This document shows, piece by piece, positions 42,074 through 42,185 of a DNA stretch of 64,000 nucleotides (the stretch's first letter is position 1; each line of letters starts with the position of its first letter). The position numbers and the translations under genes were made by a program. This DNA is from Eledone cirrhosa (taxonomy: Eukaryota). The stretch lies in NCBI GenBank assembly GCA_964016885.1, contig OZ024748.1:57598001-57662000 (forward strand), in the 5' to 3' direction. The notes under the pieces were generated by a model, which was not told the DNA's origin, did no database searches, and saw nothing but the letters and a program-made list of their open reading frames with translations.

Positions 42074-42075
<2 letters not shown>

Positions 42076-42185
42076 CGAAGGAAATGTGGTAAGGAACCAG
42101 ATGGACCATAACGCACCAAAGTACTCAATACTTAAGGTAGTAGAGTGGGTAATAGGAACAAGTATGACCCCATACTTGTTCCTAT
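42074..42185 (-). mobile_element. Fold-back element, family P (copy 4, shortest)
   Basis: Perfect 15-bp arms at 42152-42166 and 42171-42185; the sense part starts at GGGGTC. Confidence 0.9.

Follow-up and report, generated by a model that had tools for sequence, protein, structure and literature searches.

This study revealed that the repeat copy at 42075-42185 of the window (the whole 64,000-nt stretch of Eledone cirrhosa DNA analysed here) is a fold-back insertion left by a Penelope-like element (PLE) of the Hydra clade, and that its long arm probably ends at a predicted hammerhead cut because it was copied from hammerhead-cut RNA; we put the probability of this reading at roughly 0.7. The evidence comes mainly from an accumulation of copy junctions across the genome on one base, the first past the GTC that marks the predicted cut, which is numbered +1 throughout. 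The junction sequences make it highly probable that hammerhead cleavage caused this accumulation in the family as a whole, and a cleavage origin of the copy at 42075-42185 itself is favoured with less assurance. The copy and its relatives in the window are arranged as follows.

42075-42171, minus strand: sense arm, family +1 to +97 (the end of the pLTR tail), subfamily A
42171-42185, plus strand: inverted arm, family +6 (the shared base) to +20 (the second fixed family end), abutting (TA)n
42152-42185: perfect hairpin with 15-bp arms and a 4-nt loop
42043-42074: (TA)16 target microsatellite, separating the 42075-42185 copy from the next copy
41908-42045, minus strand: neighbouring sibling stub, subfamily C, turning in the palindromic loop of stem III
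41858-41907: (TA)25 flank of the sibling at 41908-42045
29601-29793, plus strand: sibling stub turning near -41
53625-53818, plus strand: sibling stub, subfamily T, turning near -40
1568-1755, plus strand: older sibling stub turning near -41

Read along the minus strand, the sense sequence of the family opens at 42171 with GGGGTCATAC, exactly at +1 of GTC^GGGG, and reaches the family 3' end at 42075, so that the sense arm measures 97 nt and is followed by (TA)16. The two halves of the hairpin lie at 42152-42166 and 42171-42185 of the plus strand. Base 42171 can be assigned to either arm; this one shared G leaves an ambiguity of 1 nt, so that either +6 or +7 can be taken as the end of the inverted arm. 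The arms are joined by 1-nt microhomology, and the copy lies outside the class of clean junctions. Both the sense start at 42171 and the G common to the two arms had been reported in the preliminary description, and the sequence bears them out. As a type of insertion the stub is ordinary for PLEs, since its fixed ends match PLE tail and internal reverse transcription (RT) starts, and since hairpin junctions are a trait already described in PLEs in the available text of PMC8557442.

The four other copies in the window (42004, 29697, 53722 and 1659) all have GTC before GGGG, and all read through the GTC and turn further upstream. The siblings had been described as carrying AGCCGTC^GGGGTC, which holds in all four for the GTC before GGGG; the exact AGCCGTC is found in only two of them, and the copy at 42075-42185 has TGCCGTC before the cut, as a member of subfamily A. 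Since the sibling at 41908-42045 turns in the stem III loop, it was copied through the cut site. A second junction cluster in the genome lies in this palindromic loop, includes the sibling, and is explained by self-complementarity. The upstream half of the hammerhead is absent from all five window copies, so the ribozyme of the preliminary description was a prediction from half a motif; an Rfam search of the window gave no match at the gathering score.

Other repeats were also observed in the window, where a repeat scan was dominated by (TA)n. An inverted pair of a different family occupies 51250-51620 and has a canonical CTGAAGA...GAAA hammerhead-like motif in both of its arms (at 51363 on the minus and 51477 on the plus strand). 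Motifs resembling it precede (TA)n at 22245, 47242 and 54239, and another is found at 55931. Close to the 42075-42185 stub, at 41057-41335 and 41580-41857, another TA-flanked repeat of ~280 nt is present in two copies that have diverged. A probable SINE family is represented at 15695-16188, 32159-32560, 3448-3632 and 28431-28615 by repeats, some of them in tandem, that measure 185-238 nt and carry tRNA-like box motifs.

With regard to the parent element, a 24-mer from the family tail has 23,294 exact matches in the genome, and the family comprises ~24,000 copies. The long copies are 3' ends of a PLE, one of which (L034) has a pair of direct pLTRs together with an ORF and a piece of pLTR in inverted orientation. 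Both kinds of arm abut (TA)n at a fixed end, which is +97 for the sense arms and +20 for the inverted arms. The open frames of two long copies, L135 and L136, contain RT motifs (YRDD), an endonuclease region with AYIGLT, and also DKT (from DKG), RWR, the linker CNCPDRSIC (CxCX5C), CNLC (CxxC) and CKH (CxH), all read by eye. Their pLTR-to-pLTR length of ~3.1 kb was counted as agreeing with the Hydra-clade limit of under about 3 kb, and insertion into (TA)n, the pLTRs, the inverted truncated copy and the tail at one end fit the same clade. Judged by these motifs read by eye, the parent element belongs to the Hydra clade of C-terminal EN+ PLEs. Pfam and PDB sequence searches with pieces of the ORF gave no match.

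In its available text, PMC8557442 gives as marks of the Hydra clade a short single ORF with RT followed by a GIY-YIG-type EN, DKT, an RWK motif, a CxCX5C linker, and CxxC and CxH, which flank conserved E and N. The present element shares with these PLEs the single short ORF, the RT and GIY-YIG-type EN, DKT, an RWK-like motif, the CxCX5C linker and CxxC/CxH, and also the (TA)n targets, the hammerhead in the pLTR and the inverted, 5'-truncated pLTR without tail. It differs from those described there in its core, which is U3-A8 or mismatched C3·A8 with a long stem II where theirs is canonical, and in its tail of ~77 nt where theirs has 30-40. A Neptune/Nematis label was dropped, as these require a CX2-5CxxC linker and the linker here is CxCX5C. 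A non-LTR retrozyme, made of tandem non-coding units with a whole hammerhead each, was also rejected: what the window holds are truncated hairpin stubs that lack the upstream half and come from a coding element.

The whole type I hammerhead is spanned by 4,074 genome matches, found only in long copies. Its predicted parts are stem I, a core whose position 8 is A, a long stem II, GAAA, a stem III of 6 bp closed by a palindromic loop, and GTC, so that the long copies show the three helices round a core, the GAAA and the NUH triplet of a type I hammerhead. The constrained hammerhead fold is the minimum-energy fold in L135 and lies 0.8-2.4 kcal/mol from the minimum in other subfamily T and U3-type subfamily C copies; free folds of three long copies were no better than shuffles (z -0.3 to -1.3). 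Rfam hammerhead models gave no match to L135:1400-1750 at E up to 10, which the long stem II and the variant core may explain.

Subfamilies T, C and A, told apart by the letters at +7 and +12, have nearly unchanged stems I and III and differ in their cores. All 21 long copies of T carry U3-A8. Subfamily C is mixed, with U3 in 13/31 copies (scored by eye and assigned via the stem II haplotype); a tail letter that seemed to split its U3 from its C3 copies rested on 2 versus 3 copies and was dropped, so the core type in this subfamily is not resolvable per copy. In subfamily A, C3 stands opposite A8 in 31/33 copies of a sample biased toward L016 and in 6/7 unselected rows. Since the available text of PMC11167929 has the 3-8 pair as needed, we infer that the C3·A8 mismatch weakens the core. 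The mismatch looks derived, because older A-like copies (e.g. L278, L053 and L145) retain U3-A8; one has U3·G8. Subfamilies with the C3 mismatch still reached thousands of copies. U3-A8 is a known natural hammerhead covariant that is active in vitro; in the available text of PMC4209133 it is the variant of Schistosoma Cercyon. The present motif has in common with the PLE hammerheads described there, including Cercyon, the type I form in the pLTR, the U3-A8 covariation and the palindromic loop 3, and differs from them in that helix III is a full 6-bp stem.

A count of junctions at GTC^G across the genome, which the preliminary description had proposed, gave a one-base spike on both arms. The genome contains 933 short hairpins (at most 30 nt between the fixed outer motifs). 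For the first 100 of these, all loci were fetched and both arms were extended against natural copies. Extra letters separate the arms in 36 rows, which makes both ends unambiguous and gives 72 ends; the other 64 rows, with overlapping or abutting ends, stand outside this count, and six C2 rows represent one event. In the 36 hairpins, 47 of the 72 ends lie at +1 (23 inverted-arm and 24 sense ends, both in 21 hairpins), 5 at +2 (3 and 2) and none on either arm at -1, with binomial p = 5e-40 against an expectation of 1/17 and 7e-13 against 1/4. Eight more of the first 100 are blunt CCCC|GGGG, a junction that fits +1/+1 and can also be read as -1/-1 paired through CG. When the search was opened to about -8 in subfamily T, the first 100 of 238 rows, classified by eye with a script agreeing on rows 1-30, comprised 38 clean hairpins with both ends at +1 and 34 blunt ones; none had both ends at -1, and one locus had both at -2. 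Added letters between the arms are short, varied and mostly A/T (26/32 in T, 39/50 in C), and none of 40 loci with such letters shared collinear flanks.

The frequency of hairpins with both arms at +1, clean and blunt together, is highest in T at ~171/11,112 inverted arms (1.5%, extrapolated to all 238 rows from 72 such cases in the first 100), followed by C with 39/11,711 (0.33%, all 72 rows read) and A with 3/1,874 (0.16%, all 34 rows read; 2 by exact pattern). Numerator and denominator patterns are incompletely nested, the exact denominator arm being present in 18/21 T and 14/19 C loci. Corrected for divergence, the rates are 1.7-1.8%, 0.42-0.46% and 0.21-0.25%, respectively. Among short hairpins only, T differs from C (p=0.023) and from A (p=0.0008); C and A do not differ significantly per arm (p=0.27). 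The gradient follows the share of paired cores. Per-arm divergence is 0.6% in T, 1.3% in C and 2.7% in A, so that T is the youngest and the order of ages matches that of core types; part of the gradient could reflect age-related loss of tight palindromes. A gain of +1 junctions over time is excluded, because the rate is highest in the youngest subfamily. The proposal that the ribozyme was active in vivo is thus supported for the family, by a spike that is strongest where the 3-8 pair is intact.

For the copy at 42075-42185, its derivation from a self-cleaved 3' product, as claimed earlier, is probable, tempered by the C3·A8 mismatch of its subfamily and by its 1-nt microhomology junction. A possible, if doubtful, alternative is that the spike is real and this copy an ordinary truncation, in which a cDNA stopped or was trimmed within the G run, paired through one G and fell on +1 or +2 by chance. 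The 1-nt ambiguity would permit this, the mismatched core and lowest both-arm rate of subfamily A agree with it, and junctions of any kind also fall at +2 to +12. In a mixed sample of microhomology junctions like that at 42171 and their mirror, the +1 register holds 10/18 (p=0.04) and other registers 8/18. Within subfamily A, however, shared-G junctions in the four-G register number three events, against 0, 0 and 1 in three shorter registers. These three are independent insertions with a junction identical to that at 42171: the window copy, one on C26 and one on C2 (C2:276.98-277.00 Mb, L258-L263), where a single hairpin insertion underwent local six-fold duplication in both orientations. What counts against a cleavage origin is that junctions of this type occur no less often in A, with 3 events per 1,874 arms, than in T, where the 100-row sample has 1 (~9 per 11,112).

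Also speaking against chance truncation, subfamily A has three clean both-arm and three clean one-arm hairpins at +1. One of them, L275:1430-1990 (C10 near 53,883,900), carries the tail on its inverted arm, and its arms meet at +1 across one T; it continues ~330 nt into the beginning of the ORF and then jumps back to about +1..+20. This seems to represent template jumping from and to cut-site ends. It suggests that there was type A RNA starting at +1. Such starts could be explained by residual cleavage, or by trans cleavage through the palindromic loop.

It is unlikely that the +1 spike is non-catalytic, arising where RT stalls at the meeting of stems I and III or from a minor promoter at this G. 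In the predicted fold the site forms a three-way junction, and other structure-linked junction clusters exist, such as that in the stem III loop, both of which are compatible with a stall. Nevertheless, if RT stalled at the base of stem III, ends would fall at -1, where there were 0 of the 72 clean ends, and stems I and III barely differ between subfamilies whose rates differ 4- to 8-fold with the 3-8 pair; a plain RT stall is therefore disfavoured. A minor promoter would have to start exactly on the predicted scissile bond by coincidence. Central collapse of long palindromes after insertion, or assembly mis-joining of hairpins at CCCC/GGGG, is very improbable: near-perfect palindromes such as these inserts are unstable DNA and one C2 locus is duplicated six times, but the rate peaks in the youngest subfamily, the opposite of build-up with age, the spacers are varied added letters, and a short-read contig of run X2, which may be from the assembly's own sample, has a joint at +1 with one T between the arms.

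The earlier claim that the cut defines the template's 5' end holds for a small class of copies and not as a general rule. In an unselected sample, namely the first 90 of the 23,294 tail matches, fetched regardless of junction, no copy started at +1 (0/90, with 1-2 expected), and most read through to about -41: 47 start at -36 to -47, one at -48 to -200 and nine further up, and 41/62 scored arms terminate within -36 to -47. Judged by both arms, only about 1% of copies owe their template 5' end to the cut, perhaps 2% when one-arm cases are included, which bounds its role, as ~98% of copies were not started there. At -41 stands the A of a motif, T(T/C)AGT, that lies within hammerhead loop II and that we take to be initiator-like. 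The depth of short-read contigs, possibly from the assembly's own sample, climbs ~20-fold across this region, and the Penelope promoter sits in the pLTR. Transcription likely starts near -41. Strict patterns for a cap-derived G at this point left only 15 copies, one of them with G. Since RNA starting at about -41 would lack the upstream half of the ribozyme, it would not be cleavable in cis.

Given these observations, we propose that the endonuclease cuts (TA)n and that both cut ends prime reverse transcription at the two fixed internal sites, +97 and +20. Each cDNA would extend toward the 5' end of its RNA, and the two cDNA 3' ends would then be joined head to head through short microhomology or a few added A/T letters, which fits the mirror junctions better than fold-back of a single cDNA. 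Most templates would begin near -41, at a likely promoter start inside loop II, and ~1-2% at +1, as 3' cleavage products. At 42171, the first cDNA would have run off at +1, its last C pairing with the G of the second cDNA at +6.

A known system with a similar insertion pathway is Poseidon of Anolis carolinensis, with which, on the available text of PMC11167929, the present family shares the cutting and extension of both target strands, the two internal RT starts delimiting a tail and the origin of most insertions from uncut RNA. Ribozyme mutants of Poseidon are reported there to insert normally in vitro, with uncut RNA as the main template, and in the portion available no RNA-seq read begins or ends at the cut; these results count against the cleavage reading. 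The figure of ~1% cleavage-started copies is in line with that in vitro result. The two systems differ in that genomic copies here accumulate at the predicted cut and follow the core genotype, whereas Poseidon needs no cleavage in vitro.

A precedent for reading a ribozyme cut from genomic 5' junctions is provided by R2 elements with HDV-like ribozymes (PMC3774820, available text), in which the junctions likewise record the cut and show added letters and microhomology joining. In R2, the cut is the normal full-length 5' end, whereas here it is made by a hammerhead, in a different class of retroelement, and gives a side class of 1-2%; moreover, the junction here joins cDNA to cDNA. Hammerheads occur in nearly all PLEs, and Craig et al. 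2021 (PMC8557442), as far as the available text goes, call their function unclear. The authors of PMC4209133, in the text available, report low in vitro activity for PLE hammerheads and state that in vivo evidence is absent. Further literature on the topic, available in part, includes PMC3088659, PMC2377424, PMC3846280 and bioRxiv 10.64898/2026.07.22.740005. A search by titles and abstract openings, with subscription journals mostly outside it, found no report that junctions of PLEs accumulate where a hammerhead cuts. The element type is known, and the kind of evidence on in vivo cutting by a PLE hammerhead is new.

The one-base junction spike, following a natural polymorphism of the core, provides a genetic read-out of hammerhead activity. 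It also supplies naturally matched live and dead core variants for assay, and the junction count is applicable to any genome rich in PLE hairpins. In a broader reading, whose chances we consider evenly balanced, a few hundred fossil cDNA ends would locate hammerhead cleavage in vivo with one-base precision, and subfamilies without the 3-8 pair would have largely lost this signature and still spread by the thousands. The ribozyme might then act in cis on read-through RNA and, via the palindromic loop 3, in trans on RNA that is promoter-started or core-dead. If this is true, the ribozyme would be active yet dispensable for the spread of the element.
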